A stretch of 64,000 bases of DNA from Bacteroidota bacterium. GTDB taxonomy: Bacteria; Bacteroidota; Bacteroidia; B-17B0; Aurantibacillaceae. Location of the stretch: the NCBI GenBank assembly GCA_019638705.1, contig JAHBTI010000016.1, positions 4,177-68,176 of the forward strand, read 5' to 3'. The position numbers and the translations under genes were made by a program. Shown here piece after piece: positions 2,725 through 26,788 of this stretch; within the stretch, counting starts at the first letter, position 1, and each line of letters begins with the position of its first letter. The notes below the pieces were generated by a model that was given only the letters and a program-made list of their open reading frames with translations, was not told the origin of the DNA and did no database searches.

Positions 2725-5043
2725 TCAATCAAGTATTACCTTACCCGCAAACTCGCCTTTTGGCAGTATCACTTTGTAGTAATACACGCCTTTGCTCAGT
2801 GTGCTTATGCTTATTGCGCTGCGGTTGCTGTAATTCTTTTTGCTTACTACCAAACTGCCGAGCATATTGTATAACTCAATAGTTATTTGTTTTTCGTTGC
2901 TTGGCACGTCAAAATAAATTTCTGTGTTGGCAGGGTTTGGATAAACTCTCAACTTTAAACTTTCATCTTTCAACTTAACTATACCAATAGTGCTATCAGG
3001 TGCGGCAGGTGTAGTAGCACAAGCCGTGTTACTAAACGCGCTTGTTCCCACGCTGTTGGTTGCCGCTACTTTATAGCAATAGGTAGTTGTATAGCTTAAA
3101 CCTGTATGTGCGTAGCTTGTAGTATTGGGGGGTAGTGTAGCCAACAAGCTGTATGTTGTGCTGCTGCCAAATGTATAGTGCAATTCAAAATTAGTTTCAT
3201 CGTTGCTGTTATCGTTCCACGCTACGTTATTGGTTAGGCTGCCGTTGTTTGTTGCCGTTAAGTTAAGTGGTGTGTTGGGTATGCTTGTGGCGGTAGGGGC
3301 TGCGGGCGTGGTGGCGCAATCAGTATTGCTGAACGCACTTGTGCCTATGCTGTTGGTAGCCGCTACTTTATAGCAGTAAGTAGTTGTATAGCTTAACCCT
3401 GTATGCGCATAGCTTGTAGTATTGGCGGGTAGTGTAGCCAACAAGCTGTATGTTGGGTTGCCGCCAAAGGTGTAGTGCAACTCAAAATTACCTTCATCAT
3501 TGCTGTTATCTTGCCAATTTACATTATTAGTTAAGCTACCGTTATTTGTAGCAGTTAAAGCAAGCGGTGCATTGGGTACTGTGCCTGTGGTGGGTGTATT
3601 GCCGCAGCTATAACCATATTTAGCTACAAAGCCGTCTTCTGTACCACCATATATATGTACTGCCGTACCCGCACTGTCTAACGTACCGCCAAACATACCG
3701 CAGATATAAATATTACCTTGTTTGTCCATATCCATACTTGTAATTTCATCTCTTACGGAAGCAGGGCTGCTTCCTGTTTGGGGTAATGGATTAACATTTA
3801 TAAAATTGCCTGTTGCATCAAATTTACCTATGCAATTTTGCCGAAGTGAACCAGAGGTATAAGTAGCAGTATTAAATGCTAAATAACCACCAAGCGTTCC
3901 TGTACAGTATATGGTATCGTCTTTGCTTGTATAAGCAGGTGTTATATAATCCACATATTGCATGGTGGCTGCACTTGCGGATATTAAACTTCCTGTACTT
4001 GCGCTAAAATGATAGAAGACATTTGCGTTTGCTGATTGGATAGGAACAGGAGAATTGACAGCATAACCAAAAACGGTTGCTGTTCCCATAGCAGCCACTC
4101 CGCCCGTAATAAGCACGGTAGTGCTTGTGTCCATAGTGCATTTTCCTAATATATCACCGCCGACACCACTTGGATTACTCGTATTGTACCATAATAAACT
4201 TCCCGCAGGTGAAAATTTAAAAATTATAGAATTACTATTACCCGATGAAACATTTGTATATGATACAGAAGTCCCCCCAATATTTACCGTACCTGTAAAA
4301 AAACCCGATACATAAACATTATCATTTTTATCAAGAACAATACCTCTAATTTTAGGAACATTGCCCGATGTGGCAGTATAATTATAAAAATTTGTAAGAA
4401 CTCCCAACGTGTTTATCCTTGCAGCCTGCATTCCGTCCGATATAAAATAATTACCTTGACTGTCAAAAAATAGTTTAATAGGAATAACATTAGCACTAAA
4501 AAGATTAGGGAAGCCTGTGTATGTGTTTAATACGTTTATAAAATTACCTGCCGTATCAAATTTGGCTAAAAACACTTGATTACCGCTATTAATTATTGTA
4601 TCATGTGTCCCATCTCCCACCGTATATGTGCCGCTTGCACTGCCTCCTAATACTATCACGTTTCCATTATTATCTAATGCTAATGATGTTGCCGCATCGT
4701 TAGCAGTCCCCCCCATTCTTCTCCACCACAACGTTTTTCCGCAAGAGCTGTATTTTATCAAATAAGCGTCAAGCCTGCCGTAGCCGCCTGTATTAGGTGG
4801 TGTGGTTGATGTAAGTGCGGCATTCTGAAATACAGGATTAGTGTATAAATAACCTACTGCATACACATTGCCCAAGCTATCGGTTTTTATGTCTGCTATC
4901 TTTTCATTACCTGTGGGGTTAAACGGGTGTCCGTCATTATCTCCCGCACTGCCTGCTTGCTTTGCCCATTGCCAACTTGGTTGTTGTGCATAGCTGTATG
5001 CAGTAAACAGCGCAAATAGTAAAAATGTAATGTTCGTTCTCAT
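2725..5043 (-). CDS. T9SS-secreted protein: beta-propeller (SBBP-like) repeats, two FN3 domains, type A sorting domain
   Basis: Start moved to ATG 5043 (MRTNITFLLF signal peptide). Repeats of DxxGNVY type, two FN3 modules, and a C-terminal LRVYPNPA...LSKGVYYYKV...GKVILD. Confidence 0.8.
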   Translation of the reverse strand: MRTNITFLLFALFTAYSYAQQPSWQWAKQAGSAGDNDGHPFNPTGNEKIADIKTDSLGNVYAVGYLYTNPVFQNAALTSTTPPNTGGYGRLDAYLIKYSSCGKTLWWRRMGGTANDAATSLALDNNGNVIVLGGSASGTYTVGDGTHDTIINSGNQVFLAKFDTAGNFINVLNTYTGFPNLFSANVIPIKLFFDSQGNYFISDGMQAARINTLGVLTNFYNYTATSGNVPKIRGIVLDKNDNVYVSGFFTGTVNIGGTSVSYTNVSSGNSNSIIFKFSPAGSLLWYNTSNPSGVGGDILGKCTMDTSTTVLITGGVAAMGTATVFGYAVNSPVPIQSANANVFYHFSASTGSLISASAATMQYVDYITPAYTSKDDTIYCTGTLGGYLAFNTATYTSGSLRQNCIGKFDATGNFINVNPLPQTGSSPASVRDEITSMDMDKQGNIYICGMFGGTLDSAGTAVHIYGGTEDGFVAKYGYSCGNTPTTGTVPNAPLALTATNNGSLTNNVNWQDNSNDEGNFELHYTFGGNPTYSLLATLPANTTSYAHTGLSYTTTYCYKVAATNSIGTSAFSNTDCATTPAAPTATSIPNTPLNLTATNNGSLTNNVAWNDNSNDETNFELHYTFGSSTTYSLLATLPPNTTSYAHTGLSYTTTYCYKVAATNSVGTSAFSNTACATTPAAPDSTIGIVKLKDESLKLRVYPNPANTEIYFDVPSNEKQITIELYNMLGSLVVSKKNYSNRSAISISTLSKGVYYYKVILPKGEFAGKVILD
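2998..3576. repeat. Tandem duplication of an FN3-coding module (2998-3279 and 3295-3576, period 297 bp)
   Basis: Near-identical peptides PNxPLxLTATNNGSLTNNV...TTPAAP, with high nucleotide similarity. Confidence 0.9.
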
Positions 5044-5185: not shown

Positions 5186-5225
5186 AAAAGCGGACTTCTC
5201 TTTTTGCAGTGAGAAGTCCGCTTTT
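5186..5225 (-). terminator. Intrinsic terminator; the original tRNA-Leu terminator, displaced by the element
   Basis: Perfect 15-bp stem AAAAGCGGACTTCTC / GAGAAGTCCGCTTTT with a 10-nt loop, directly adjacent to the GTAC core at 5226. Confidence 0.85.
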
Positions 5226-5321
5226 GTACTCCCAGTGGGGGAAATATCGCACTATAATATTGATGATTTTAATAAAATTTTGGAATTTACAGGACTTATT
5301 GAGCCTATTTCTGAGGTTTAA
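5226..5321 (+). other. Left attachment junction carrying a startless 31-codon frame, the predicted alternative C-terminus of the recombinase
   Basis: GTA CTC CCA GTG GGG GAA...GTT TAA translates to VLPVGEISHYNIDDFNKILEFTGLIEPISEV*. The GTA codon is in frame with the recombinase GTA codon at 26704. Confidence 0.65.
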
Positions 5322-5776
5322 TCAATTCATCTCATAACTTGTTAATTGGCTGGTGAAAGGTTAGATGGTAAAGATATGCTAAAAAATTGTACGCTTGAAA
5401 TCTATTTTTTTAAACGTTCCGTTTTTCTTGTAAAAAAATGTCTAATCTTGGTTTACCCTCTTTTAGTTTGTTTTTCACAGCAAAAAAATCAGTTTGCAGC
5501 TTGTTTACGAAACGAGCGAAATTCTTTACTGTATTTTATTTTGTATTCCATTGGCGTTAAAGAACTAATATATCTTGCAAGAAGTTTGTTACGTTTCATA
5601 GTCAAATGTACAGCGCAAACTCAAACTGTCAAATAGTGTATTCGCACTTTAATATCACATTCGGAAAAATAATTATGACAAAATATTATCTTTGTGTAAA
5701 TAAACCTCAACTTCATGATGTAAAGGCAACCAAAATATGAAGTTGGCGGACGTATAGAGTAGAGGGATACATACAA

Positions 5777-7047: not shown

Positions 7048-7080
7048 TCTTTGGACACTGCAATTCACAACAGACAAAAT

Positions 7081-8916
7081 ATGACGACAGAACATATTGA
7101 AAAAATATTTACCGACTACCTTAAAACTGACAAAACGCAATATGCGATTTTGCTAAATGGCAGTTGGGGGTGCGGCAAAACATACTTTTGGAAGCATTCT
7201 TTAGAGGAAATTGCTAAAAAAAATGATTTCAAAACAATTTATGTATCGCTAAACGGAATTGGCAAAATAGATGACCTTGACCATCAACTTTTCGTAAAAT
7301 TATTGCCTTTTATTAGCAATCAAGAAAACAAAGTAATAAAAAATGCAACAAATTTTTTGGGTAATGTATTAAACAAACTAAGCAATCATTATCTCAATAC
7401 AAGTATATCGGATATTTTCAAAGGTGTAAGTATTGATACTTTTAACTTTTCAAAATACATAATTTGTTTTGACGACTTGGAACGTTGTCAAATTCCTGTC
7501 AAAGAAGTGTTAGGGTTCATCAATAATTTAGTTGAACATAAGAACTTAAAAACAATAATTCTTGCTCACGAACACGAAATTGAAAAGAAAGAAGAATACA
7601 AACGCATTAAAGAAAAAGTTGTTGGTCGTGATTTAAAATTTGAACTTGATATTCGTTCAACATTGCCTAATCTGTTTAATAAATACAAAGACAATTCCGA
7701 TTTTCACAATTTCTTATTGTCAGCTCAAAAAAACGTTATTACCGACATTTTAGTTGAATACAAACAAGACAACCTTAGAATAATAAGTTTCTATTTAGAT
7801 ATTTTGGAAAGGATTTTTCCAATATTGAAAAATGTTGATTCAAAATATGTTCAAGAAACAATCTTATTTTCTGCCATAATTATTATTGAATATAAAAATG
7901 GTGGATTGACTTCTACGGACTATAAGGATTTTAAAGGTATTGACGATATTAACGAACATTATTACTCATTGAACCTTGCAAGGACAATGAGAAAATCTGA
8001 GAAGGAAGAAACAGAAAGAAAAAAATCCTATGCAGAAATTTTTTACGAAAAATATTTAGATAAGAGAGTTAATACATACTTCTTCTATCCATCAATATAT
8101 TCTTTCATTCTTTCAGGCTACTTAAATCAAACTGAGTTAGAAACCGAAATCAAAAAACGTTATCCAGAAGTCATTTCTAAAGAAATTCAAGATTTCAGAA
8201 CCTTAATTCATTATAAATTTCGTGAACTATCTGACGAAGATTTTAAAAGGCTCACAAAAGATGTTTTGCAATACGCCAAAGAAGGCAAATATTCCATTTA
8301 CGACTATGTTCAAATTGCGCAATTCTTTTACTTTTTCTCTAACAATAAACTGATTACTGAAAGCAAGGAAGATATTGATAAAATAATCAATGACGGGCTT
8401 GAAATTGCGAAAGCACGAAAACAAATCAATGACAAAGTTCTTGAAAATCTTTTACATTTTGGAGACGATAATCCTCATGTAACAGACATAAAGAAACTTG
8501 TCAAAGAAATTCACAACGAAATTAAAAAAGAAGAATACGTTGCAAATAGCAACGAACTTATTGACTGTTTAGTAAATAAAGACGAGTTTGCGTTGGCAGC
8601 AATTTTTGAGAAGCACAAATTCTCAGAAGAACTCTTCCAATACGCAGATGACAAACTATTGTTTGATACAATTTTGAAAGTTTCTAATAAACAATTATTC
8701 AACTTTACCGAATTACTAAGACGCCGATACGAAATTGGAAACATTGGTGAGTTTTTGTTTGAGGACACAGGCTGTTTGAATAAAGTAAAAATGGGGTTAT
8801 CTGACTACCTTGACAAAAGTGAAAACATTGAGCAACCGAGAAAGTTCTTGTTTGCTACATTAGAAAAGACTTTAATGTTAGCTATTCAATACTTGAATGA
8901 CACAAGAAAAAAATAA
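7081..8916 (+). CDS. KAP-family P-loop NTPase
   Basis: YAILLNGSWGCGKT (Walker A), ICFDDLERC (Walker B), EKVVGR motif; ATG 7081 preferred over TTG 7051. Confidence 0.8.
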   Translation: MTTEHIEKIFTDYLKTDKTQYAILLNGSWGCGKTYFWKHSLEEIAKKNDFKTIYVSLNGIGKIDDLDHQLFVKLLPFISNQENKVIKNATNFLGNVLNKLSNHYLNTSISDIFKGVSIDTFNFSKYIICFDDLERCQIPVKEVLGFINNLVEHKNLKTIILAHEHEIEKKEEYKRIKEKVVGRDLKFELDIRSTLPNLFNKYKDNSDFHNFLLSAQKNVITDILVEYKQDNLRIISFYLDILERIFPILKNVDSKYVQETILFSAIIIIEYKNGGLTSTDYKDFKGIDDINEHYYSLNLARTMRKSEKEETERKKSYAEIFYEKYLDKRVNTYFFYPSIYSFILSGYLNQTELETEIKKRYPEVISKEIQDFRTLIHYKFRELSDEDFKRLTKDVLQYAKEGKYSIYDYVQIAQFFYFFSNNKLITESKEDIDKIINDGLEIAKARKQINDKVLENLLHFGDDNPHVTDIKKLVKEIHNEIKKEEYVANSNELIDCLVNKDEFALAAIFEKHKFSEELFQYADDKLLFDTILKVSNKQLFNFTELLRRRYEIGNIGEFLFEDTGCLNKVKMGLSDYLDKSENIEQPRKFLFATLEKTLMLAIQYLNDTRKK

Positions 8917-9453: not shown

Positions 9454-10344
9454 ATGAAACCTTACCTTACTTATAATGGCTCGTATGGCAATGATACGAT
9501 TGAACTTGAACGCGGCTTGGTAAACATCATTTTATTGCAAGATTTACTTACACAGCATAATAACAAAATTGAACCGCACGCGCACCCCAATTTGTATCAA
9601 TTGGTTGTAATTGAAGAAGGCGAGGGCGAAATAATATTGGGAGAAAAAACATATCAAATTCAAGGTCATTCTTTAGTAAGCATTCCAAAAAACACTGCAC
9701 ATTCATTTATGTTAGAAACAGACACAAATGGTTATGTTTTTAGTTTTTCTCATCATGCACTTGAAAGCCTTTTGAAAAAAGACGATAAACTATTGCGGGT
9801 GCTTGACTGCGCAAATGTAACGGATATTCAGGCAAAGCAAGAATTGCACAATACTATTTGTGATATTGTTAAAAGATGTGCAGCAGAATATGATGAAAAT
9901 TCAGAGGAACGGGGTTTGGCTCTTAAAAGTTTGAGTGAACAGTTATTTTTGGCATTACACCGACTATACAAAGATAATGGTCATATAGACAATGTTGATA
10001 TTAATGCAGAAAAAAAACTATTACAGAAGTTTGATTTACTAATTAAAGAATTTCATTCACCTCATGTCAAATTACACGAATACTGTCGCGAGCTTTCATT
10101 AACTCCAAGACGACTTAGTTATCTTTGTTATAAACATAACAACAAAAGTCCTAAACAAATAATTTTAGAACGCCTTGTGGAGTTAATTCAAAATGCTTTG
10201 TTAAACAAAAAGGAAAGCATTAAAAAAATATCATTAGATTTTCACTACAAAAATGCAAGCCATTTTGATAGGTTGTTTAAAAAAATTATAGGAATAAGCC
10301 CTCGTCAATACCGAATTGAGCATGGTATAGAAGAAATCGCATAA
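9454..10344 (+). CDS. AraC-family transcriptional regulator (cupin sensor plus HTH)
   Basis: N-terminal EPHAHPNLYQL cupin motif; C-terminal IKKISLDFHYKNASHFDRLFKKIIGISPRQYR. Confidence 0.9.
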   Translation: MKPYLTYNGSYGNDTIELERGLVNIILLQDLLTQHNNKIEPHAHPNLYQLVVIEEGEGEIILGEKTYQIQGHSLVSIPKNTAHSFMLETDTNGYVFSFSHHALESLLKKDDKLLRVLDCANVTDIQAKQELHNTICDIVKRCAAEYDENSEERGLALKSLSEQLFLALHRLYKDNGHIDNVDINAEKKLLQKFDLLIKEFHSPHVKLHEYCRELSLTPRRLSYLCYKHNNKSPKQIILERLVELIQNALLNKKESIKKISLDFHYKNASHFDRLFKKIIGISPRQYRIEHGIEEIA

Positions 10345-10478: not shown

Positions 10479-11903
10479 ATGGAAAAGAAAATTATTTTTA
10501 GTGCAGCATTAATAGCAATTGCTGCAATTACCGCAAACGCGCAGGAAACACAACATTGGACAACCGACCTGATGACTGTGGGGGCTGCTGACGAAGCCAA
10601 ACTTGGCACAGAAAATGAAAAACCGTTGAATTTTTACACCAAAGGAGAAAAGCGCACGGTAATTGACACCAACGGAAAATTTACACTATTAAGATATGCC
10701 AACAGTAATATTCCTGACAACTGGGGAAATCGCCGATTATATGTCAATAAATTTGGTGTTATAACCACATCTCCTCATGGAGGCGGAAACGGAGGATATA
10801 CAGAAGGTGATGTTTATTGTACTTGTGATGAGCCTTGTAATGCTATGATTAGTGGGGGTATATCTCCTACAAGTCCTTGTCTGAATAACACCCCACAAGC
10901 ATGGTTTGAAGGTGGTAATATTCTTTATACTGACCATTGTGGTGGTTCTTCAAACATTATAGGCACTTGTAACAGCTATGACTTTGTGATGAAAGCAAAC
11001 GATACAAGCGCAATTTTTCTGAAAACTGACGGAAGAGTAAACATTGGTGCAAATAATGATATAGCTAACAATGCTACAACCGCAGCACAGCTTGACATAA
11101 GCGGAAAATCAGTAAACCAAAACAGTGGACTAAGAGACCATTTAAGAATTTACGGAGATAATGACGGCAATATAGAATCTACCACAGGTATTAATTTATA
11201 CTTTGAGGGAGCAGATAACGATTTTCGCATTCATCGCGGCAACGTGGGCAGCGGCACAAGCGTATTAAGCATACTTGGAACTAATAGCGGTGGCGGTGTG
11301 TATATAAATGACTTTGTAAATGTGGCTGCTGATGCAGTTATAAGCGGTAATACAGCTATTGGCGGCGATGCAAGTGTAAACGGTAACGTGGGTATTGGTG
11401 GCGATGTGGGTATTGACGGCAATATTGATGTTATTGGCGCGGCAAGCATTGCAGGCAACTTGAATGTTAATAATAGATTTAGTGTGGCAAGCAGCACGGG
11501 TTATACCGAAATAAAAGTGTATTCCCCATTAGGAATGCCAACGCCTTACGGCGCAACCAATCCAAGAGTTTTAACCGTCAGAGATATGAATGCCAGCAAG
11601 GATTTATTTGCCGTAACATCAGCAGGCATGGTATATGCCCGTGAAGTAGAAGTTAATTTAACAACAAATTTCCCCGATTATGTATTTGATAAAGACTACA
11701 AGCTGCCGTCCATTCCCGAAATGGCAAAATACATTGAGAAACACAAACGATTGCAAGGTTTTGAAAAAGGCGAGTATTATGAGAAAAACGGCATTAACGT
11801 AAACCAAATGTTTGTGAAACAACAGGAAAAAATTGAAGAATTGACACTTTACATTATTCAGTTAGAAAAACGACTAAGCGCGTTAGAGAAAGGAAAGAAA
11901 TGA
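10479..11903 (+). CDS. Secreted spike/tail-fibre-like protein with hexapeptide beta-repeats and a C-terminal S74-chaperone-like/coiled-coil domain
   Basis: Signal peptide; GNTAIG-GDASVN-GNVGIG-GDVGID-GNIDVI-GAASIA-GNLNVN repeats; FPDYVFDKDYKL...EKIEELTLYIIQLEKRL end. Confidence 0.65.
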   Translation: MEKKIIFSAALIAIAAITANAQETQHWTTDLMTVGAADEAKLGTENEKPLNFYTKGEKRTVIDTNGKFTLLRYANSNIPDNWGNRRLYVNKFGVITTSPHGGGNGGYTEGDVYCTCDEPCNAMISGGISPTSPCLNNTPQAWFEGGNILYTDHCGGSSNIIGTCNSYDFVMKANDTSAIFLKTDGRVNIGANNDIANNATTAAQLDISGKSVNQNSGLRDHLRIYGDNDGNIESTTGINLYFEGADNDFRIHRGNVGSGTSVLSILGTNSGGGVYINDFVNVAADAVISGNTAIGGDASVNGNVGIGGDVGIDGNIDVIGAASIAGNLNVNNRFSVASSTGYTEIKVYSPLGMPTPYGATNPRVLTVRDMNASKDLFAVTSAGMVYAREVEVNLTTNFPDYVFDKDYKLPSIPEMAKYIEKHKRLQGFEKGEYYEKNGINVNQMFVKQQEKIEELTLYIIQLEKRLSALEKGKK

Positions 11904-11955: not shown

Positions 11956-12381
11956 ATGAAAGCACTATTTTCCATTATCGTTTTTGTACTGATGTTATTG
12001 TTTTGCAATACAACAAAAGCCCAAGAAAACAGCCTTGTGTTAAGTTATGACAACGGCGGCAACATGACACAAAGAAAAGTGCAAGTGATGTTTGGCGCAA
12101 GATTTGCCGCACCTGATATACAACAAAAAGATTCCTTACCCCCGATGAAAATATATCCAAATCCTACAAATGATTATGTAAACATTGAGGGAAAACTGCC
12201 TGAAAACGTGCGAAAAGCAGAATTACTTATCAGCACAACAGACGGGCGTATTTTGAAAACAGATGTTTATACAGGCGAAGCAAAACAAATTTCTGTTTAC
12301 AATTTAGCCAAAGGAATGTATCTGCTTGAGTTTATTTATTCCAAAAAACAGAGAGACACTTATAAAATTATTGTGAACTGA
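11956..12381 (+). CDS. Small T9SS type A sorting-domain protein
   Basis: Signal peptide, LSYDNGGNMTQR, then KIYPNPT...LAKGMYLL...TYKIIVN sorting domain. Confidence 0.8.
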   Translation: MKALFSIIVFVLMLLFCNTTKAQENSLVLSYDNGGNMTQRKVQVMFGARFAAPDIQQKDSLPPMKIYPNPTNDYVNIEGKLPENVRKAELLISTTDGRILKTDVYTGEAKQISVYNLAKGMYLLEFIYSKKQRDTYKIIVN

Positions 12382-12428: not shown

Positions 12429-15400
12429 ATGGAAAAAGCATTTAGTTTTATCGCCTTGTTTTGTTTGTCTTGCCTAAATATGCAAGCGCAAAACCCGAGC
12501 AATTACACATTCCCGAACCCGACACCCAACCCGAATAATTTAACTGCCAATACTTACACAAGGGCAACGCAAAGTATTAACCTGAAAAACGGGTTTTCTT
12601 TCAACCCTGCGGCATCGCAAAACGGAAATAACCTTTTAAACTTAAACATCAACTCTTATCCAAACTATGTAAATAACAATTACACTAATCCTGCCGACAA
12701 TCAAAATTACTATTCTGTAAATCCTAATTTAGAAGTGGGTGTTACACAGGGCGCACACCAAGTGGACAACATCGGTGGATTTAATTATAATATTCCAATC
12801 GTTTGTTCGCCCGGCAGAGCAGGTTTAGAACCAAACTTGTCAGTAGTGTATAACAGCAACGGCGGCAACGGTTGGTTGGGTTTGGGCTTTAATTTAAGCG
12901 GCATTTCTGCCATTACCCGCACGGGAAAAACCGTGTTATACGACGGTTTAAACAGCGGGATTAATTTTAACAGTAATGATGTTTATGCTTTAGACGGCTC
13001 TCGCTTATTTATAAAATCAGGAACATACGGACAAAACGGCGCAACGTACAGAACAGAGGTAGAAAATTACGCCGTTATTACCTCACATGGCTCACAAGGC
13101 AGCGGAGCACAATACTTTACAGTTACCACACCCGACGGCATGACAATGGAGTATGGCAACAATGCTTCGGCAAAGAGTGTAGATGTAAATAATACCGATG
13201 TGTTGGCTTGGTACATAAACAAAGTGTATGATGTGTATGGAAATTACATGGAATATTTTTATACGAACAGCAACGGTGAATTGCTGATTACAAAAATAGA
13301 ATACACTAAGCACAGCAGTGTAAACTTATACAACAAAATAGAGTTTAATTACATAGAACGCAGCGACAATGCTCCGCTTTATGTGGCAGGCAAAGAGTTT
13401 AGGAATAAACATTTGTTACAAAGCATAGTTAGCAAAGACATAAACGGCAATGCAGTAAGAAAATATTTTTTTGAGTATCAATATCAGTACGGCAGCTTGC
13501 TGAACAAAGTAACCGAAGTGGACGCAAACGGCAATCAATTAAATCCTACGTTTTTTGAGTGGAATGATGAAACGTTGAGTTGGAACTGGAAGTTTGGAGC
13601 TGTAAGCACAGCTACTGATATTGTGCGAACTACTGCTGCCGACATAAATGGTGATGGCAAGCAAGATTTAATATTGACAAGGGATTACGGTGCAGACCAC
13701 TATGTGGAAACTAAATTAAACGTTGGGGGAAGTTTTTCTCACATCAGCGGTTTGCTGTTAAGTGCCAGTTCTGCCAGTGCAGAAATATTTGCCATATATG
13801 TTTTTGATGAAGACGATGACGGCATAGACGAAGTGTTTTACATTATGGGACAGCCCATAACCACACCCAATCATTATGAATGGGAAATTAAAAAACTTAA
13901 AAACACCAATGGCACGTTAAGCATTGTACAGGAAGAACCCTTACACACAGATACAGGTGCAGTAGTGTGTTGGGGCGGTTTATTTTGGAATTTTCAGAAA
14001 AGTGTTACTTCGGGGTGTTTTTACGCTAAGCAAGATGTAACGGGCGACAATCTGAATGATGTAATTATGTCAGACGGGTTTAATATTAAACTTACTCCGT
14101 CCAATCAACAGGCTGCCATTACTTTACCTGTTTCAAACTTAGTGAAAATTGGTTTAGGCGACTTTAACGGCGATGGAGTTTTGGATATTTATACAGTAAA
14201 ATTCCCCTCTACTCCGGTTAGCCCTTCTCAAAGCCAATTGCTTGATATTTTAGTTTATTCTTATAATGAAGCAAACAATACCTTAAACCAAATTGTATCT
14301 ACGCAGGTAAACATTGGTTCTAATCCCTATTATACAACTTGGGGAGCAATTGGTTTTGCAGCTGCCAATGCTGCTAATGCTTCCAAATGTATTGGCTTTG
14401 GCGATGTAAACGGCGATGGGAAAACCGATATATTTTATGTAAACTACAACAACGGCACAAGCACTTGTAAACTCATCTGGCTGCGCAGTAACGGCGTTGC
14501 GTTTATGACCGCTCCGCAAGATGAAATTTCATTAACCACGGCAACAACATTCAATAATCTTGAAGCCAATTTTTCTGTGGCAGATGTGAATAATGACGGC
14601 AAATCAGACATTATGGTTAGTAGTTTTGATACTGTTTATGTAGGTCATGCAAGTTATTCTTATTTTCCCTCTATTGGAACTGCCCTTGTAAACGACAATA
14701 TGCCAACTGCGCCTGTTTGGGGAAGAAGGCTAAGCACTATGGGTGATTTTGACGGCGACGGAGCTATGGATTTTGTGTTTCAAGATGACGCAACCGACAG
14801 TTATATTCTCTATCACGGTTTTGACGAAGACAACAAAAAAATGGTGAAACGCATTTTTAACATCAGAGATGAGATAAACATTACCTATAATTTTTTGCCA
14901 AGTGCAGCCAACTGCCAAAAAACAACTCCGGCGTATGGCAATAATAATTATGCCAATTTTAAAATCATTAAACCCGCCCTGTATGCGGTTTCTTCTGTGG
15001 TTGCCAACGGGCAAACCACAAGCTACGGATACAGCAACGGCATTTTGCACAGGCAAGGGCGGGGCTTTATAGGCTTTGAACGCTTGTTTGTGCGCAACGA
15101 AGATAAATCTTCGGGTGCGGAAAAAGCGGGTATGTATTCAGGCTTTGAATATAATCACATTAATGATGCCGTAACTTGGAGTGAAAGCATGAGCACCTAT
15201 TTATCAAACAGCAATATGTTTAGCATTAACCATGCTAAAACTTCAAGCTACTCTTCCTCGTTGCCAGGTTTTTCTTATGTAAACGGCAGCGGTTATCTGC
15301 GCCGCCTGAGCAGCAACCAAACCATATCAAAAAATTACCTCAGCTCCACGCATAACCTGCAAACTGTTACTTACGACCCTAACAACGCAGGTTCGCCCCT

Positions 15401-18400
15401 GCAAACGGTTTTTCAAAACCGCACATGGCTGCAATTCGGGATACTGAACAGCACACAAACAGACTATGTTTATCAAACAATTGCCGTAAACGGCAAAACC
15501 TGTTACAAACCCCAGCAGGTAACAGAACAGATAAGCGCAGGCAGCGTTTCTACGTTTATTCACACATACAGTTATGATGGGCAGGGGCGTTTAACCACAG
15601 AAGTTAAAAACTCAAACATTGCGGGGCAAGCCGTTACCACCGCCTATTCTAATTTTAACGCTTTTGGCGCACCGCAAAACATTTCGGTTTCTGCTCCCAA
15701 TGTGGCTTCGCGCAGCTCGCAGGTGCAATACGACAACACAGGGCGGTTTATAACCAAAAGCACCAATGCCATTGGCGATTTTGCAGAATTTGTGTACGAA
15801 CCGGGTTTGGGAAATAAAATTCAGGAAAAAGATGCTTCGGGTTTAATTACAAATTATAAATACGACGGACTTGGGCGAGCCATTTGGGTAAAGTTGCCAA
15901 ACGGCGCGGTAAATACGGTAAAATATGAGTGGTATCCTTATAATTCATTGTACGGCACTAAAGTAACCACCCAAGCAGAAAACGCACCAAGCACATGGAA
16001 ATACTATGACCGCAACGGCAATATGATATTGGCACAACAGCAAGATTTTGGCGGCAATACAAAAACGGCAAATTTCACCTACAATATTTTAAATCAACCG
16101 CTCACGGCGCAGGATATGCACTACAGCTCACAAAGCAATTACAACAGCATAACATACAGCTATGATGATTATATGCGCCCTTTAACAAAAACAAAAAGCA
16201 TTGTCGGACAAAACACGGTAATAAATTATTCATACAACAATTTAAGTAACAACAGCACTTACAATAAAGGCTTTGTGCAAATGAGCGCGCCTACCGCCAC
16301 AAACGGCATTACCTATTCCGTAAAACGCGAAAACAACTCGGCAGGGCAAACAGACAAAGTAATAAACACAAGCAACGGCACAACGCACAGTGCCTCTTAT
16401 AATTTTAATGAGTTTGGGCAGCCGACCTATATAAGCAACGATTATGCAGGCGCAGGGCAATACGGCATTACCATGAGCTACGATGCGCTTGGCAGGCAAA
16501 GCGGTTTAAACGACCCTAACGCGGGCAACTGCACATATCAGTACAACGCCTTTGGTGAACTGACACAGCAAATTACACCCAACGGCACATACAATATGCA
16601 ATATGATTTGCTGGGGCGTGTAACACAAAAAACAGACGGTGCAAACAACACCTACACTTACCTGTACGAAACAAGCAACAGCGGCAAAGGGCAACTGAAA
16701 CAAATTACAGGTGCAAACATGACTACCGAGTTTAAATACGATGACTTTAGCCGCCTTACCGAAAAGAAAGAAACCTTAACGGCAGACAACAAAGTTTTTA
16801 AAAGCAATTTTACTTACAACAAATACGGGCAGCTTGTAAATTACACTTACCCAAGCGGTTTTGTTACTAAAAATGAGTACGACAATATTGGCAACCTGAT
16901 AAAAATAAAAAACGGCAACACCACTATTTGGCAATTAAACACTATGGCTGCACCCGGCATAGTAAGCAATTACAAATACAACAACGGAAATTTAAGCAAC
17001 AGCATTGTTTACGATAATAAGTTAAATCTGTCGGAAATACACTATGGTAATTTGAAAACACACTGGTATGACATAGAACACAAAACCAACAACCTGCAAA
17101 CCCGTACTGTTTTTGATAACAATTATGCTAATCAGGAAATTTTTAAGTACGATGAATTTGACCGCCTTACTAAAGTGCAGTATTATAATATCAATACCAT
17201 GTACGACAAAGCTACCATGACGTATAATCAAAACGGCAACTTTAACCAAAAGAGCGATTGCGGTGATTATGTGTATGGCAACAGCAATGCTCCCTACCAA
17301 CTCACGGCAATACAAAATCCCGTAACAGCAAACATCAGTTTAAACACGCTGAATGTAACCTACAACACATTTAGAAAAGTAAGCCAAATTGTAGAGGCAG
17401 ACCCTAACGGCACTAAGCAGTTTGACTTTGTGTATGGCAACGATGAGCAGCGTGTAAAAATGGCGTACAGCGTAGGTGGCAGCACAATTTATACACGGTA
17501 TTATGCTGACGGCTGCGACAGGCAGGAAGACAATGTAAACAACACATACAAAGAGTGGACATATATTTACGCCCCAACAGGCTTATGTGCCGTGTATTAC
17601 AGCGGCACATCTCTCCCCCCTGTGGGGGGAGGCGGAGGGGGGCTTTACTACGTTGCTCCCGACCATTTGGGCAGCCCTGTAATGCTGATTAACAGCAACG
17701 GACAAATAGCAGAAGAATACAGCTTTGACGCTTGGGGGCGCAGGCGCAATCCGCAGGATTGGAACGATTATGTAAACACAGGTTTCCCCCCTTTGGGGGG
17801 TGCAGGGGGGCTTCTAATACGCGGCTACACCATGCACGAAATGCTTGATGAAGTTGGCATAATAAACATGAACGGGCGCATTTACGACCCTGTGCTTGGG
17901 CGTTTTTTGCAACCTGATAATTATGTGCAAAGCCCTGACAATTTGCAGAATTTCAATAGGTATGGGTATTGTTTAAATAATCCGCTGAAATATACTGACC
18001 CGAGTGGGGAGGTGATTGGTGTTGCAGAAATTTTGGCAGCAACAATAGGCGGAGTGATGAATGTTGCTGCAAATTGGGACGCAATAAAAAATTCCAAAAG
18101 TTCATTTGGGGCAGGAGTTGCTTACTTTGGAATAGGAGCAGTGAGCGGAGTTGTAGGTTTGTACACATTTGGAGCAGGTGGCGGCGCATTAGCTGCGCTT
18201 GGTAATGGATTAATGCAACAACAAAGTGGAGGGCAAATTGTACAAAACATGGTTGTAGGTGCTGTATCAGGTCTTACAAGCTATGGTATTGCTTCGGGGC
18301 TTGGCTCTATAAACTATGGGGGAATTACCAATAATTTTGCAAGATACGCCGCCAAAGCAGGTATAAGTTTTGGTGTAGGTTTTTCATCAGGTTTTGGTGG

Positions 18401-18977
18401 AAATTTGACGGGACAGGCATTGGCGTGGCAATTTGGCTGGCAGGATAGAATTAATGGGAAAGCAGTGCTGACGAGCGGTTTAACAGGAGGTAGTATTGCT
18501 ATGGGTATTTCTATTGGATATTCTGCTTATGATTATGCAACGTGGGATAGGTATGACCCAACTGTTCAAGCAGAAATGCTAAACAAGGATGGGTGCAATA
18601 TCGAATATATGAGTAAAGAAAAATGGGATGCCTTATCGGATGATGTTAAAGGAGGCAGGAATTACAAAACAACAGGAGGAATAACCACTGACGGTGTTTC
18701 CTACATCACCGATTATGGACTAAGCAATAGGCAATTTGCCAATTCGGTTTATTACCATGAAACCACCCATTATAATCAGATTCATGACAATCCTCCAGGA
18801 TTTATAAGTATACGCCATGATGAACAAAATGCATACTTGAGCCAAAGTTCATCGTTCAATAATTACACTCCTACTAGATACATTAAATATACCAACAACG
18901 GTTATTCAGGGAATGGTGGTAGAGGGCTCGTTTATAAGTCTAATTTTAGTAATAACCTGTTTAATATATTTAGATAA
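12429..18977 (+). CDS. RHS/YD polymorphic toxin with SpvB-like and FG-GAP (TcB-like) N-terminus and an HExxH metallopeptidase-like tip
   Basis: Signal peptide; SpvB-like GGFNYNIPI...PNLSVVYNSNGGNGWLGLG; five DxNxDGxxD repeats; YD repeats; core end GRFLQPD...NPLKYTDPSG; Gly-rich hydrophobic linker; HETTH and downstream E. Confidence 0.9.
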   Translation: MEKAFSFIALFCLSCLNMQAQNPSNYTFPNPTPNPNNLTANTYTRATQSINLKNGFSFNPAASQNGNNLLNLNINSYPNYVNNNYTNPADNQNYYSVNPNLEVGVTQGAHQVDNIGGFNYNIPIVCSPGRAGLEPNLSVVYNSNGGNGWLGLGFNLSGISAITRTGKTVLYDGLNSGINFNSNDVYALDGSRLFIKSGTYGQNGATYRTEVENYAVITSHGSQGSGAQYFTVTTPDGMTMEYGNNASAKSVDVNNTDVLAWYINKVYDVYGNYMEYFYTNSNGELLITKIEYTKHSSVNLYNKIEFNYIERSDNAPLYVAGKEFRNKHLLQSIVSKDINGNAVRKYFFEYQYQYGSLLNKVTEVDANGNQLNPTFFEWNDETLSWNWKFGAVSTATDIVRTTAADINGDGKQDLILTRDYGADHYVETKLNVGGSFSHISGLLLSASSASAEIFAIYVFDEDDDGIDEVFYIMGQPITTPNHYEWEIKKLKNTNGTLSIVQEEPLHTDTGAVVCWGGLFWNFQKSVTSGCFYAKQDVTGDNLNDVIMSDGFNIKLTPSNQQAAITLPVSNLVKIGLGDFNGDGVLDIYTVKFPSTPVSPSQSQLLDILVYSYNEANNTLNQIVSTQVNIGSNPYYTTWGAIGFAAANAANASKCIGFGDVNGDGKTDIFYVNYNNGTSTCKLIWLRSNGVAFMTAPQDEISLTTATTFNNLEANFSVADVNNDGKSDIMVSSFDTVYVGHASYSYFPSIGTALVNDNMPTAPVWGRRLSTMGDFDGDGAMDFVFQDDATDSYILYHGFDEDNKKMVKRIFNIRDEINITYNFLPSAANCQKTTPAYGNNNYANFKIIKPALYAVSSVVANGQTTSYGYSNGILHRQGRGFIGFERLFVRNEDKSSGAEKAGMYSGFEYNHINDAVTWSESMSTYLSNSNMFSINHAKTSSYSSSLPGFSYVNGSGYLRRLSSNQTISKNYLSSTHNLQTVTYDPNNAGSPLQTVFQNRTWLQFGILNSTQTDYVYQTIAVNGKTCYKPQQVTEQISAGSVSTFIHTYSYDGQGRLTTEVKNSNIAGQAVTTAYSNFNAFGAPQNISVSAPNVASRSSQVQYDNTGRFITKSTNAIGDFAEFVYEPGLGNKIQEKDASGLITNYKYDGLGRAIWVKLPNGAVNTVKYEWYPYNSLYGTKVTTQAENAPSTWKYYDRNGNMILAQQQDFGGNTKTANFTYNILNQPLTAQDMHYSSQSNYNSITYSYDDYMRPLTKTKSIVGQNTVINYSYNNLSNNSTYNKGFVQMSAPTATNGITYSVKRENNSAGQTDKVINTSNGTTHSASYNFNEFGQPTYISNDYAGAGQYGITMSYDALGRQSGLNDPNAGNCTYQYNAFGELTQQITPNGTYNMQYDLLGRVTQKTDGANNTYTYLYETSNSGKGQLKQITGANMTTEFKYDDFSRLTEKKETLTADNKVFKSNFTYNKYGQLVNYTYPSGFVTKNEYDNIGNLIKIKNGNTTIWQLNTMAAPGIVSNYKYNNGNLSNSIVYDNKLNLSEIHYGNLKTHWYDIEHKTNNLQTRTVFDNNYANQEIFKYDEFDRLTKVQYYNINTMYDKATMTYNQNGNFNQKSDCGDYVYGNSNAPYQLTAIQNPVTANISLNTLNVTYNTFRKVSQIVEADPNGTKQFDFVYGNDEQRVKMAYSVGGSTIYTRYYADGCDRQEDNVNNTYKEWTYIYAPTGLCAVYYSGTSLPPVGGGGGGLYYVAPDHLGSPVMLINSNGQIAEEYSFDAWGRRRNPQDWNDYVNTGFPPLGGAGGLLIRGYTMHEMLDEVGIINMNGRIYDPVLGRFLQPDNYVQSPDNLQNFNRYGYCLNNPLKYTDPSGEVIGVAEILAATIGGVMNVAANWDAIKNSKSSFGAGVAYFGIGAVSGVVGLYTFGAGGGALAALGNGLMQQQSGGQIVQNMVVGAVSGLTSYGIASGLGSINYGGITNNFARYAAKAGISFGVGFSSGFGGNLTGQALAWQFGWQDRINGKAVLTSGLTGGSIAMGISIGYSAYDYATWDRYDPTVQAEMLNKDGCNIEYMSKEKWDALSDDVKGGRNYKTTGGITTDGVSYITDYGLSNRQFANSVYYHETTHYNQIHDNPPGFISIRHDEQNAYLSQSSSFNNYTPTRYIKYTNNGYSGNGGRGLVYKSNFSNNLFNIFR
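17613..17642 (+). repeat. GC-rich palindromic element in frame inside the RHS gene (encodes LPPVGGGGGG)
   Basis: CTCCCCCC-TGT-GGGGGGAG followed by a G run. Confidence 0.6.
17783..17811 (+). repeat. Second GC-rich palindromic element in frame inside the RHS gene (encodes FPPLGGAGG)
   Basis: CCCCCC-TTT-GGGGGG-TGCA-GGGGGGC. Confidence 0.6.
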
Positions 18978-18982
18978 AAAAG

Positions 18983-19498
18983 ATGGTAAGAATTTGCACC
19001 TATACTATACTATTTATTAATATATTCATTAATAATTTATTTGCACAAATATCGCTTAAACTAGATACTTATACAATTGAATACGACAAGGATAATGTTG
19101 CGACGGGTGTTCAGATAATTTATCAATCCATAGTGGAAAAAGATACAGTACTAAAACTATATTTAACAAAGGAAGAGTTAATTGAGTTTAAAAGCGATAA
19201 AAAAATTCGAAGCGAAAGTTTATTTGATATAATTACAGTCAATGTAGTTCCATTTACCAAAAACAACATTCAAAGTATTATTATGCGACCAGCATATGTA
19301 ATGACTAAATTGAATAAAGAAAGGGTTAAATTGAATAAAGGAGAATTCTTCAAAGTAGTTTTAACTATTTCATTGAGAAGTTTTCAAAATGGAATAAATA
19401 AAGAGTTTGTTTCGCCAAATGAAATCAAGAGCCTTAACATAGAAATACTTAACAACAACAAGAGGGTTATGGATAAAAACTATATAAATATCCATTGA
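18983..19498 (+). CDS. Putative cognate immunity protein of the RHS toxin
   Basis: Starts 5 bp after the toxin stop, AT-rich, signal-peptide-like N-terminus; function inferred from position. Confidence 0.6.
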   Translation: MVRICTYTILFINIFINNLFAQISLKLDTYTIEYDKDNVATGVQIIYQSIVEKDTVLKLYLTKEELIEFKSDKKIRSESLFDIITVNVVPFTKNNIQSIIMRPAYVMTKLNKERVKLNKGEFFKVVLTISLRSFQNGINKEFVSPNEIKSLNIEILNNNKRVMDKNYINIH

Positions 19499-20962: not shown

Positions 20963-21532
20963 ATGAAACAGGGCGAAAAACAAACCATTAAAACAGACAG
21001 AGCGTATTTTTTAACGCTAACGGTTGTTGGTTGGATAGATGTTTTTTCGCGGCAAAATCACAGAAATGCTTTTATTAATTCTTTAAAATATTGTCAGCAA
21101 AATAAAGGTTTGATTGTGTTTGCTTATGTAATGATGACAAACCACATACATTTAATGGTAAACACACACGAACCGTTTTTATTAAAAGATGTAATTAGAG
21201 ATTTGAAAAAATATACCTCTAAACAAATAATTGAGCAAATTATTAATCAACCTGAAAGCCGAAGATAATGGCTATTACAACTTTTGGAATTAGAAACAAA
21301 AGATAAACAGGGCAATAAAAATCATAAATTTTGGCAAGAAGGAAATCATGCCATAGAATTGTATAATGAAAAGTTTGTTTGGGATAAAATAAATTACATA
21401 CATAATAACCCTGTGGAAGCAGGTTATGTGAGAAAGTCGTATGAATGGATTTACTCTTCGGCGAGTAATTATTACGGTATGGAAAGCATAATAGAAGTAG
21501 AATGTTTGCAACAAAGATTAAATACAATTTAG
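20963..21532 (+). pseudogene. REP-associated tyrosine transposase (RAYT / Y1 HUH) with one in-frame TAA at 21266-21268
   Basis: YFLTLT, HUH motif NHIHL, KFWQ, catalytic YIHNNPV, YSSA. The two ORF-track pieces (20963-21268, 21284-21532) share one frame: ESRR*WLL. Confidence 0.85.
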
Positions 21533-24764: not shown

Positions 24765-25139
24765 ATGAGCATAAAACAGGTAAAATCAGCAAATCCCAAA
24801 GCTAAAATATTAATTTTTATTACATTGATAATCAATATAATAAGTATTTGTTTTTGGGTATATTTGTGCCAATCCGCACAAAAAACAAACCAAGAAAAAG
24901 TTGAACAAAAAACACGATTAATTTTTATGCAAGATATAACAGCAGAAGAAATTTTAGCTGAAAGTGAATTTAAAAATTTGAACGAAGAACAAGCCAAGCA
25001 AGTAGCAGAGTTTGTTAATACAATAAGCACCATTTTTTATTCACTCTATAAACAGCAATACGAAGACGGATACAAATTTGAAACACAATTAAACGTAGAA
25101 ACAAATCATAATTACGAACCATTAAAAACCGCAGCATAA
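24765..25139 (+). CDS. Small hypothetical protein immediately upstream of the recombinase
   Basis: ATG 24765 preferred (the ORF-track start 24615 runs through the duplicated module); one hydrophobic helix; stop 1 bp before the recombinase ATG. Confidence 0.6.
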   Translation: MSIKQVKSANPKAKILIFITLIINIISICFWVYLCQSAQKTNQEKVEQKTRLIFMQDITAEEILAESEFKNLNEEQAKQVAEFVNTISTIFYSLYKQQYEDGYKFETQLNVETNHNYEPLKTAA

Positions 25140-25140
25140 T

Positions 25141-26739
25141 ATGAACAACTTAATTTTATTTGAACAATTTGCCAAAGGCAAAACACAACTTCAAAAACGA
25201 AGCAACAACTGTGTTATTTACACCCGCGTTTCAGGCAAAGAACAAGAACTTGGTTACAGCTTGGAAACACAGCGCAAAACCTGTGAAGATTACGCCAAAA
25301 AACACCAATACGCCGTTATGGGCGTATTTGGTGGAACGTATGAAAGCGCAAAAACAGATGAACGAAAAGAATTTAACCGAATGCTTGCTTTTGTAAAAAA
25401 GAGCCGAGAAAAAATTTCATACATCATCGTTTACAGCGTGGACAGATTTTCGCGTTCGGGTGCAAATGCCATTTACATCAAAGACCAATTACGCGCACAA
25501 GGTATTTTTCTTGTTGCCGTAACACAACCTGCTGACACTTCCACATCAAGCGGCGACTTTCAGCAAAACATTCAAATCATTTTTTCGGAGTACGATAATA
25601 ATTTGCGCAGAGAAAAATGTATGGCAGGCACTCGTGAAGCTCTGATGAAAGGCGAATGGTGTCAAAGACCGCCTTATGGTTACGACATCATGAAAGAAAA
25701 CGGCAAACGCAAAATTGTTTTAAACGAAAAAGGAAAATTTTTGCAAAAAGCATTTTATTGGAAAGCAAACGAACGCCTCACGCACACCGCCATATCCGAA
25801 CGTTTGGAAACATTCGGCGTGAAAATTCCAGATAAACGTTTATCGGGTTATTTCCGAAATCCTTTTTATTGCGGGCTTATGGCACACTCCTCATTAAAGG
25901 GACAAGTTGTTGAGGGTAATCATGAAAAAATGATTAGCAAAGAAATCTTTTTAAAAGTAAACGACCTTTTAAGAGAAAACAAACACGGCTATTCTTCCAA
26001 CGAAGTAGAAGAGGGAACGCCGCTCAAACGTTTTCTGCGCTGCGACCATTGCGGAGCGTATATGAGAGGGTATATCGTTAGAAAGAAAAATCTTCCTTAT
26101 TACAAATGCAACACCTTAGGCTGCGGTAACAACAAAAGCGCGAGAGATTTACATAGCATTTTTGAAAAAACATTAAGTTGGTTTAGTTTGGTTAGCAATG
26201 CTTCTATAAGAAAATTTGTAGCCAAACAAATTGCAACAAAATACAACCGAGAACACAAAGAAAAAGACGAGAGCAAAGAAACAATCAAACGTCAAATTAC
26301 AGAGCTTCAAAAGAAACAAGAACGATTGGAAGAACGCCTTATAAATGAAGAACTAACCCTTGAGTTGTACAATAAATTTTCGGGAAAGTTCAGAGAGGAA
26401 ATAATAGCCTTAGAGAAAAATTTGCTGCAAAATCAAAAACGAGTGTCTAACCTTGAACATTGTGTAAATATCGTGTTGGATTTTGCCGCCAACCTCCCGA
26501 AATCATGGACTTTGATGGGATTTAAAGACAAACAACTGCTTCAATTTTTGTTGTTTCCGGAGGGTATTCGCTACAGCAAGAAAAACAACGAGTGTCGTAC
26601 CACCAAAATAAATTCGGTGTTTTCTTACATCGCCCATTTGGTAAGGGATATGGGACAAATAAAAAGCGGGGCATCAAAATTTTTAATTGATTGCCCCGCG
26701 TTGGTACCCCGAGCCGGAGTCGAACCGGCATGCCAATGA
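25141..26739 (+). CDS. Large serine recombinase (integrase)
   Basis: YTRVS catalytic motif, VDRFSR, PPYGY recombinase domain, zinc ribbon RCDHCG...YYKCNTLGC, coiled coil; last 11 codons come from the tRNA antisense strand. Confidence 0.92.
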   Translation: MNNLILFEQFAKGKTQLQKRSNNCVIYTRVSGKEQELGYSLETQRKTCEDYAKKHQYAVMGVFGGTYESAKTDERKEFNRMLAFVKKSREKISYIIVYSVDRFSRSGANAIYIKDQLRAQGIFLVAVTQPADTSTSSGDFQQNIQIIFSEYDNNLRREKCMAGTREALMKGEWCQRPPYGYDIMKENGKRKIVLNEKGKFLQKAFYWKANERLTHTAISERLETFGVKIPDKRLSGYFRNPFYCGLMAHSSLKGQVVEGNHEKMISKEIFLKVNDLLRENKHGYSSNEVEEGTPLKRFLRCDHCGAYMRGYIVRKKNLPYYKCNTLGCGNNKSARDLHSIFEKTLSWFSLVSNASIRKFVAKQIATKYNREHKEKDESKETIKRQITELQKKQERLEERLINEELTLELYNKFSGKFREEIIALEKNLLQNQKRVSNLEHCVNIVLDFAANLPKSWTLMGFKDKQLLQFLLFPEGIRYSKKNNECRTTKINSVFSYIAHLVRDMGQIKSGASKFLIDCPALVPRAGVEPACQ

Positions 26740-26788
26740 AGGCACTGGTGTTTGAGACCAGCGCGTCTACCAATTCCGCCATCGAGGC
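26702..26788 (-). tRNA. tRNA-Leu (CAA)
   Basis: GCCTCGATGGCGGAATTGGTAGACGCG-CTGGT-CTCAAAC-ACCAG-long variable arm-GCCGGTTCGACTCCGGC-TCGGGGT-A-CCA; 87 nt. Confidence 0.97.

Follow-up and report, generated by a model that had tools for sequence, protein, structure and literature searches.

What becomes of an integrase when the attachment site of its element lies within its own gene? A stretch of 64,000 nucleotides from a Bacteroidota contig (hereafter the window) raises this question, as it holds a recombinase gene at one border of an island and a short open frame without a start at the other. A reading made from the sequence alone (the sequence-only reading) had proposed that integration splits the integrase gene, that excision would restore another C-terminus, and that the element thus makes two isoforms of the enzyme depending on its state, possibly as a switch of directionality, stability or degradation.

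The Integrase Gene and Its Detached 3' End

The recombinase gene is located at 25141-26739 on the plus strand. In its present, inserted-state form it encodes 532 amino acids, and its final 38 nt are antisense to a tRNA-Leu(CAA) gene. The open reading frame enters the antisense of the tRNA 3' end through a valine codon, so that the last 11 codons are antisense tRNA and the translation ends in ...DCPAL-V-PRAGVEPACQ*. The proposed in-frame passage across the core is thereby confirmed. The enzyme is a large serine recombinase, comprising a catalytic domain, recombinase and zinc-ribbon domains and a coiled coil. Two Pfam profiles exceed their cut-off (PF00239 Resolvase, 8.5e-27, residues 25-173; PF07508 Recombinase, 1.4e-07), while the zinc-ribbon profile PF13408 (Zn_ribbon_recom) scores 23.1 bits, under its cut-off of 25.3. 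The catalytic-domain motif VIYTRVSGKEQ is present, and sequence matches in the PDB are to resolvases and the TP901-1 catalytic domain. A Foldseek search with the AlphaFold2 (AF2) model, which has long helices at 354-430, returned full-length matches to the phiC31, Bxb1 and LI (Listeria) integrases with E-values down to 2e-15.

The putative detached 3' end of this gene lies at 5226-5321 (plus strand) and comprises 31 codons plus a stop, with the translation VLPVGEISHYNIDDFNKILEFTGLIEPISEV*. Translation bears out that the frame is opened by GTA at 5226 and lacks a start of its own, the sole candidate being an internal GTG at 5235. Both this GTA and the GTA at 26704 are followed by C. A 552-aa protein with a different C-terminus is predicted from the joined sequence, in agreement with the two forms that had been proposed. 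In the window alone, the left-junction open frame is not significant; simple arithmetic from base composition gives a chance of about 10% for a stop-free run of 30 codons in DNA of ~33% GC. We regard the frame as real because of the empty-site contigs and because frame and motif recur across the integrase family, as described below.

Borders of the Island and the Crossover Site

The island spans 5230-26703, i.e., ~21.5 kb (about 21.48 kb between the GTAC cores), as delineated by the empty site, GC content and Pfam content. Its integration target is the tRNA-Leu(CAA) gene at 26702-26788 on the minus strand, the one tRNA found by ARAGORN. The only identity between the two junctions is GTAC, present as the attL core at 5226-5229 and as the attR core at 26704-26707. 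Two compost metagenome runs each provide an assembled contig (X1, 475 nt; X3, 1759 nt) that tracks the left flank as far as 5229, departs from the window there and continues straight from 26708 onward into the tRNA gene; their loose end, CCCGAGCCGGACTCGAACC, is tRNA sequence. Related strains thus hold the empty site and, since these contigs join 5229 to 26708, the island borders are fixed to the base. Wrong borders or an assembly error were considered and are ruled out by the empty-site contigs from the two runs. GC content drops over the island (5.2-26.7 kb), reaching 0.30-0.35 at both ends. Among the assembled contigs of sequencing runs, only the empty site was seen, and no circle junction of the window island. 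No long direct repeat pairing both island ends was found in the window, which fits the expectation for a serine recombinase.

From the window alone, any dinucleotide inside GTAC could be the crossover. Across the family, the junction cores read GTGG, GTAC, GTAG and others, and GT is the only constant dinucleotide. Because of this invariance, GT at 26704-26705 is most likely the crossover dinucleotide. It belongs to the Val codon and is the antisense of the discriminator A73 plus C74 of the tRNA. This DNA-level identity accounts for the invariance of Val522 in alignments of 30 and 60 sequences. The empty site reads ...GGGGTAC-AAAAGC, i.e., the native tRNA-Leu gene does not encode its CCA (compare 5218-5229 with 26696-26707). 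The occupied tRNA gene reads ...GGGGTACCA, and the CA of its CCA is supplied by the island. The codon preceding the Val codon ends in TG in most loci of the family, and the island therefore supplies the CA there as well. Among the 53 loci that have a tRNA close by, 34 show a full CCA inside the tRNA end called by ARAGORN.

A tRNA Terminator Antisense to Integrase Codons

Insertion at the exact 3' end of the tRNA gene separates it from its own terminator. This hairpin (5186-5225, minus strand; -23.5 kcal/mol, z-score -6.64, followed by UUUUU) directly adjoins the tRNA in the empty-site contigs and is stranded at the left junction in the window. A second hairpin of the same kind, borne by the island, is found at 26661-26699 on the minus strand (-20.1 kcal/mol, z-score -4.35); read on the tRNA strand, its GC stem precedes a UUUUU run. 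Its hairpin (26666-26699) and U-run (26661-26665) lie inside the last 16 integrase codons before the crossover. As a simple terminator scan, restricted to loops of 3-8 nt, missed both hairpins, which have larger loops, folding and covariation were used instead.

Almost every family member has a 17-bp hairpin in the 50 nt before the Val codon. Over 71 sequences, 83.6% of the cells are paired compared to 64.5% after shuffling, and 15 of the 17 pairs change on both sides. The covariation score amounts to 0.544 versus 0.217 in shuffles, and none of 500 shuffles reaches it. The tRNA strand appears to be the functional one, since it folds more stably (mean -22.0 versus -20.1 kcal/mol; better in 49 of 72), has an excess of G-U pairs (117 versus 34 on the other strand) and carries the U-run after the stem. 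The island is thus predicted to bring a new terminator for the tRNA, written antisense in codons for a predicted disordered linker of the integrase.

The Layout Across the Integrase Family

Relatives of the integrase number in the thousands. Among the best 120 listed, identity ranges from 50 to 78%, and nearly all of these end in a pattern like ..LV..G[IVF]EP.., which is antisense T-arm sequence. We surveyed 80 genomic loci from Bacteroidota. The Val codon occurs at a constant spacing of 37 residues past a CRT motif and, in 52 of the 53 loci with a tRNA called nearby, the tRNA 3' end lies at most 3 nt from its first base. The targeted tRNAs include Phe, Val, Arg, Met, Leu, Ala and Glu, and the arrangement is kept across integrases that are only ~50% identical. 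Cultured carriers are among the hosts, e.g., Chitinophaga polysaccharea 1209 (L046) and Flavisolibacter nicotianae X7X (L056).

A smaller set of relatives has no tRNA fusion and carries another tail (proteins P0002, P0021, P0027, P0040, P0120 and P0121; loci L001, L003, L025, L044, L049, L084 and L085), and nine more came from a pattern scan of metagenome contigs. In these seven loci and in L086-L094, the frame and motif of the window tail are fused to the integrase. Searching a word-indexed protein set with the C-terminal profile returned only 13 short fragments, so an exhaustive profile search of 1.84 billion representative sequences was used instead. It gave 631 matches; among the best 150 of these, tRNA-type tails account for 50 and attP-type tails for at least 47. 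The tails of P0120 (SNFSIEDFHKIIE) and of L003 at position 3704 (SNFEIEDLHAILEF) match the detached SHYNIDDFNKILEF of the window. As the window copy is a proven left end, contigs of this type join the integrase to an island left end, and the comparison shows them to represent a putative attP arrangement or tandem-island junction. Overlapping contig ends were found in none of the 17 attP-type loci, some of which are only parts of contigs, and circles are therefore not distinguishable from tandem arrays.

Left junctions were searched for as a core followed by N17, TCGAAC and an open frame. Within the 10-kb flanks of the 80 loci, only the window and L003 were recovered, indicating that most islands exceed 10 kb. 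Two other matches look false, as their frequency equals the control rate. A pattern scan of viral contigs gave no match, and the islands of this family do not look like phages.

Some loci bear traces of further rearrangement. L003 resembles a tandem array (3640-3790 and 11520-11650): a host terminator hairpin adjoins GTGG and the detached tail VGPDGALSNFEIEDLHAILEFMDMIEI at 3704, and 7.86 kb further the integrase of that element reads into the different tail of the next element. Tails can therefore swap between elements. In L007 (11560-11600), 7 nt are repeated in tandem at the crossover (GTGGTAC GTGGTAC), which moves the tRNA 7 nt off and alters the frame of the tail; the repeat may be the scar of a faulty recombination. 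In L044, part of an integrase 3' end (aa 436-522; positions 4219 and 5468-5728) remains in inverted orientation 1.2 kb past the intact integrase and faces it, which suggests an earlier rearrangement between two elements.

Recombination-Site DNA in the First Part of the Tail

The sequence-only reading had pointed out that both tails of the integrase keep V-x-x-x-G and that the two DNA arms are similar. This likeness is real, with 11 of the first 16 nt of the two right arms in the window identical, but it originates at the level of DNA rather than protein: it results from the P' arm of attP imitating the acceptor and T arm of the tRNA. The P' half-site is located at 5230-5252 and contains TCGCAC at 5247-5252, i.e., nt 22-27 from the core. 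The corresponding motif of the B' half-site, TCGAAC (26720-26725), is the antisense of the tRNA T-loop and lies 5 bp nearer the core. Both positions hold across the family. When one mismatch is allowed, the first base of TCGAAC falls on nt 22 after the core G in 17 of 17 attP-type junctions, and all eight junctions that were not selected for this motif have it at nt 22 too; in the tRNA-side arms it starts at nt 17 in 60 of 61 cases. In phiC31, the motif of the zinc-ribbon domain is likewise placed ~5 bp more distally in attP half-sites compared to those of attB, and the attP site ends near bp 27 (10.1101/2025.05.02.651858). The 5-bp register shift is thus a known signature of serine integrases, seen here on the right arms. 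A mirror-image TCGAAC was searched for by eye in the left (P) half-site, and none was found at the expected distance.

Codons 2-9 of the tail are therefore recombination-site DNA in the first place. This explains why coding periodicity is absent from about codons 2-8 and why pN/pS is 1.03 in codons 2-7. Codons 8-9 (TCG AAC) are invariant at their third positions too, and the conserved S-N of the tails follows from this attP motif. The serine of the motif expected to mark protein-level conservation of the left-junction peptide is hence conserved indeed, but as attP DNA.

A Conserved Amphipathic Helix Beyond attP

Beyond this stretch, the character of the tail changes. Coding periodicity occurs only in codons 9-20, with second positions the most and third positions the least conserved (entropy of 1.33, 1.03 and 1.59 at codon positions 1, 2 and 3 over codons of about 9-21). 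The open frame has a median of 27 codons, compared to 10.5 and 12.5 in the other two frames, and measures 21-36 codons in 16 of 18 junctions; those of L088 and L092 are short or stopped. The pN/pS of this stretch is 0.74 in frame versus 0.87 and 1.27 out of frame, a weak signal as the value is only modestly below 1 and synonymous sites are saturated.

The left-junction peptide had been expected to be conserved among relatives, and in this respect the proposal holds: 71 distinct tails have a median length of 26 aa (most 21-33 aa) and keep a pattern of hydrophobic and acidic residues. Positions 11, 15, 18 and 21 are hydrophobic in 89, 86, 90 and 78% of these tails, respectively, and positions 13-14 are acidic in 55-56%. 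Such a pattern over codons 10-21 is that of a predicted amphipathic helix. In the window this putative acidic amphipathic helix, YNIDDFNKILEF, is encoded at 5253-5288 (plus strand), as judged from entropy, residue pattern and AF2. The AF2 model is confident for the body up to ~505, disordered at 508-531 and helical at 533-543. Docking of the tail helix onto the body is not seen in the AF2 model, in which pLDDT is ~50 or lower in this region.

Conservation resides in this internal helix and not at the terminus, as the tails end in unrelated residues (...ISEV, ...LSEK, ...EIKP, ...LLNT). No conserved ssrA-like terminal tag on the removed C-terminus was found among the tails compared. A C-terminal degron was therefore set aside as the leading idea. 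The nearest relative, P0002 (78% identity in the body), has a very different tail, and the tails of integrated copies are arbitrary and vary with the tRNA used.

The Small Upstream Gene and the Cargo

Directly before the integrase, a small conserved gene (24927-25139, plus strand) ends with its stop adjacent to the integrase start. Homologues precede the integrase in L003 (9768-10004), L084 (1515-1757) and L085 (9744-10001). Their products count ~70-85 aa and the gene ends at, or overlaps, the integrase start. No Pfam match was obtained for the small protein. It may be an unstable regulator or else a directionality or accessory factor. The last four residues of all four copies fit K-x-A-A, reminiscent of protease tags of the ssrA type.

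One cargo gene (12429-18977, plus strand) encodes a 2182-aa Rhs/Tc-toxin-like protein of the polymorphic-toxin type, with SpvB, FG-GAP, TcdB-middle and RHS-repeat domains. It is preceded by a gene whose small product has a sorting domain for type IX secretion (11956-12381) and followed by small ORFs (18983-19498) that could be immunity genes. Pfam further identified a KAP-family P-loop NTPase (7051-8916), an AraC-type regulator (9454-10344) and a fragment of an IS200-like Y1 transposase (20963-21268). In related islands, the cargo comprises SIR2, TIR, HNH and type I restriction genes, and the family seems to move defence and toxin cargo. The window island also contains two pairs of internal direct repeats, 23368-23498/24624-24754 (131 nt, 91% identity) and 19517-19619/22396-22498 (103 nt, 98% identity). 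One of these copies overlaps the sequence immediately 5' of the small gene located before the integrase.

A Proposed State-Dependent Integrase and Competing Explanations

The joined sequence places attP within the integrase reading frame. It follows that the circle would encode a 552-aa integrase with a flexible linker of ~25 residues and an acidic amphipathic helix, while the inserted form would be the 532-aa integrase with the helix replaced by ten arbitrary antisense-tRNA residues. Our main reading, to which we assign a probability of roughly 60%, is that the island is moved by a serine integrase acting at tRNA 3' ends, and that the helix swapped with the DNA state tunes recombination. The large serine recombinase inserts the island at the exact 3' end of the tRNA, with crossover in the 4-nt core. 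Its site on the tRNA side includes the T-loop antisense TCGAAC, which recurs in the P' arm of the island with an outward shift of 5 bp. The linker of the circle-form enzyme would be coded by hairpin and attP DNA, and the helix would serve as a tethered binding peptide, most likely favouring or licensing integration or blocking the reverse reaction. Insertion would remove the helix and so change the behaviour of the enzyme, as reported for phage Mx8 (see below). The frame stays open for ~25 constrained codons to reach a helix beyond attP, and this suggests that the state dependence itself was selected. A role in direction is plausible because the extreme acidic C-terminus of phiC31 integrase contacts its directionality factor (10.1101/2025.05.02.651858). 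Since the integrated genes are intact with arbitrary tails, the helix cannot be indispensable for every activity; the truncated tails of two junctions and the very different tail of the nearest relative likewise speak against an essential role. A bolder version, in which the tethered helix is a built-in directionality device found only on enzyme made from the circle, is in our opinion doubtful. The helix would then license attP x attB recombination or block the reverse reaction, and may occupy the coiled-coil/zinc-ribbon surface used by the directionality factors of phiC31. If true, the circle and the inserted DNA would each specify the version of the enzyme that fits them, and little or no separate factor would be needed.

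The same layout could also be a by-product of space economy. The island must bring a terminator and the CA to the crossover, the integrase happens to lie at that end, and the helix, helping the enzyme little or not at all, would be lost on insertion without regulatory meaning. The linker coded by hairpin and attP DNA is indeed predicted to be disordered by AF2, codons 2-7 show no coding constraint (pN/pS 1.03), the integrated tails are arbitrary and differ with the tRNA, the attP-type tails of L088 and L092 are truncated, and tails differ strongly between close relatives. Nonetheless, the simplest economy would be a stop before the hairpin, yet ~25 constrained codons are held open, a conserved helix of steady length is coded past attP, and the layout persists across integrases that share only about half of their residues. 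We consider economy alone possible but on the unlikely side.

Conservation past the crossover might also reside wholly in the DNA, as an extended attP arm, a site for an accessory protein or a promoter, with no function for the peptide. For the first part of the tail such an explanation is apt, given the T-loop mimicry, plainly a DNA feature, the third positions of codons 8-9 and the lack of coding periodicity in codons 2-7. It fits poorly with codons 9-20, where conservation is highest at second and lowest at third positions (1.03 versus 1.59 bits), where the class of residue and not the bases is conserved at positions 11, 15, 18 and 21, and where the stop-free length is specific to one frame; the attP site of phiC31, moreover, already ends near bp 27 (10.1101/2025.05.02.651858). 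As an explanation of the whole tail, a purely DNA-level origin is highly improbable. Hardly any credence is left for a random open stretch or misplaced borders: a run of this length would arise in AT-rich DNA with the ~10% likelihood given above, but the empty-site contigs of two runs set the borders to the base and the same motif is fused to integrases in many independent contigs.

Relation to Known Integration Systems

The sequence-only reading had compared the locus with att-in-gene switches of phage repressors. Such a precedent exists, although a nearer one is an integrase gene, namely int of phage Mx8. In Mx8, attP lies inside int, and integration at a tRNA locus recombines the gene so that it acquires a new 3' end; the integrase (IntP/IntX) behaves differently in its prophage form (PMC6070905, citing Tojo 1996 and Magrini 1999). 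IntP/IntX is the closest precedent, as there too the attP core lies within the int frame. The Mx8 integrase is, however, a tyrosine recombinase, whereas the window enzyme belongs to the large serine recombinases and uses a very short core; moreover, the piece lost here is a short, putatively tethered helix, and a tRNA terminator is concealed in the overlap as well. For the repressors, the report on mycobacteriophage BPs and its relatives describes an att site inside the repressor gene, a C-terminus that depends on the integration state and a removed part that is an ssrA-like degradation tag (PMC4557955). In contrast, the gene concerned here is an integrase and its extreme C-termini are not conserved.

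Other relatives in mechanism or target differ in the way the gene and the tRNA are treated. SSV1-type archaeal integrases are tyrosine recombinases with attP within the integrase gene and a tRNA target, and their integration breaks this gene into two large portions, probably inactivating it. In the present case, the exchange is limited to the ~30 terminal residues and leaves the catalytic body whole. Tyrosine-integrase islands at tRNA genes, such as Bacteroides NBU1 at tRNA-Leu, duplicate the 3' segment of the tRNA as a direct repeat. The window island likewise inserts at the 3' end of a tRNA gene that is kept functional, but nothing is duplicated: the crossover falls at position 73/74, the island adds CA and a terminator, and the left junction carries the old tRNA terminator instead of tRNA sequence. 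In domain order, fold, very short core and 5-bp motif shift, the enzyme resembles the serine integrases of phiC31, Bxb1 and Listeria A118/LI. To our knowledge, these phages have their att sites outside the integrase gene and insert into protein-coding genes, unlike the many tRNA 3' ends and the in-frame attP of the present family.

In the literature, we found no description of a serine integrase family with an in-frame attP, nor of tRNA-end targeting based on the T-loop or of an antisense terminator in serine integrases. A survey of Elizabethkingia reports elements at tRNA-Leu-CAA; for most of them no integrase was recognised at the same location, whereas a few have serine recombinases. The present integrases apparently constitute a large, undescribed family in Bacteroidota. 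Serine integrases are genome-engineering tools valued for their strict control of direction, and how this control is encoded is still being worked out; a DNA state that rewrites the C-terminus of the enzyme would be a new coupling of direction to state. Many tRNA genes share the conserved T-arm that the family recognises, and this recognition provides a ready-made set of targets and accounts for the use of different tRNAs by close relatives. With a terminator antisense in coding DNA, one stretch would serve as protein, RNA structure and recombination site at once. As the cargo comprises toxins and anti-phage defence genes where examined, the family probably matters for gene flow among Bacteroidota.
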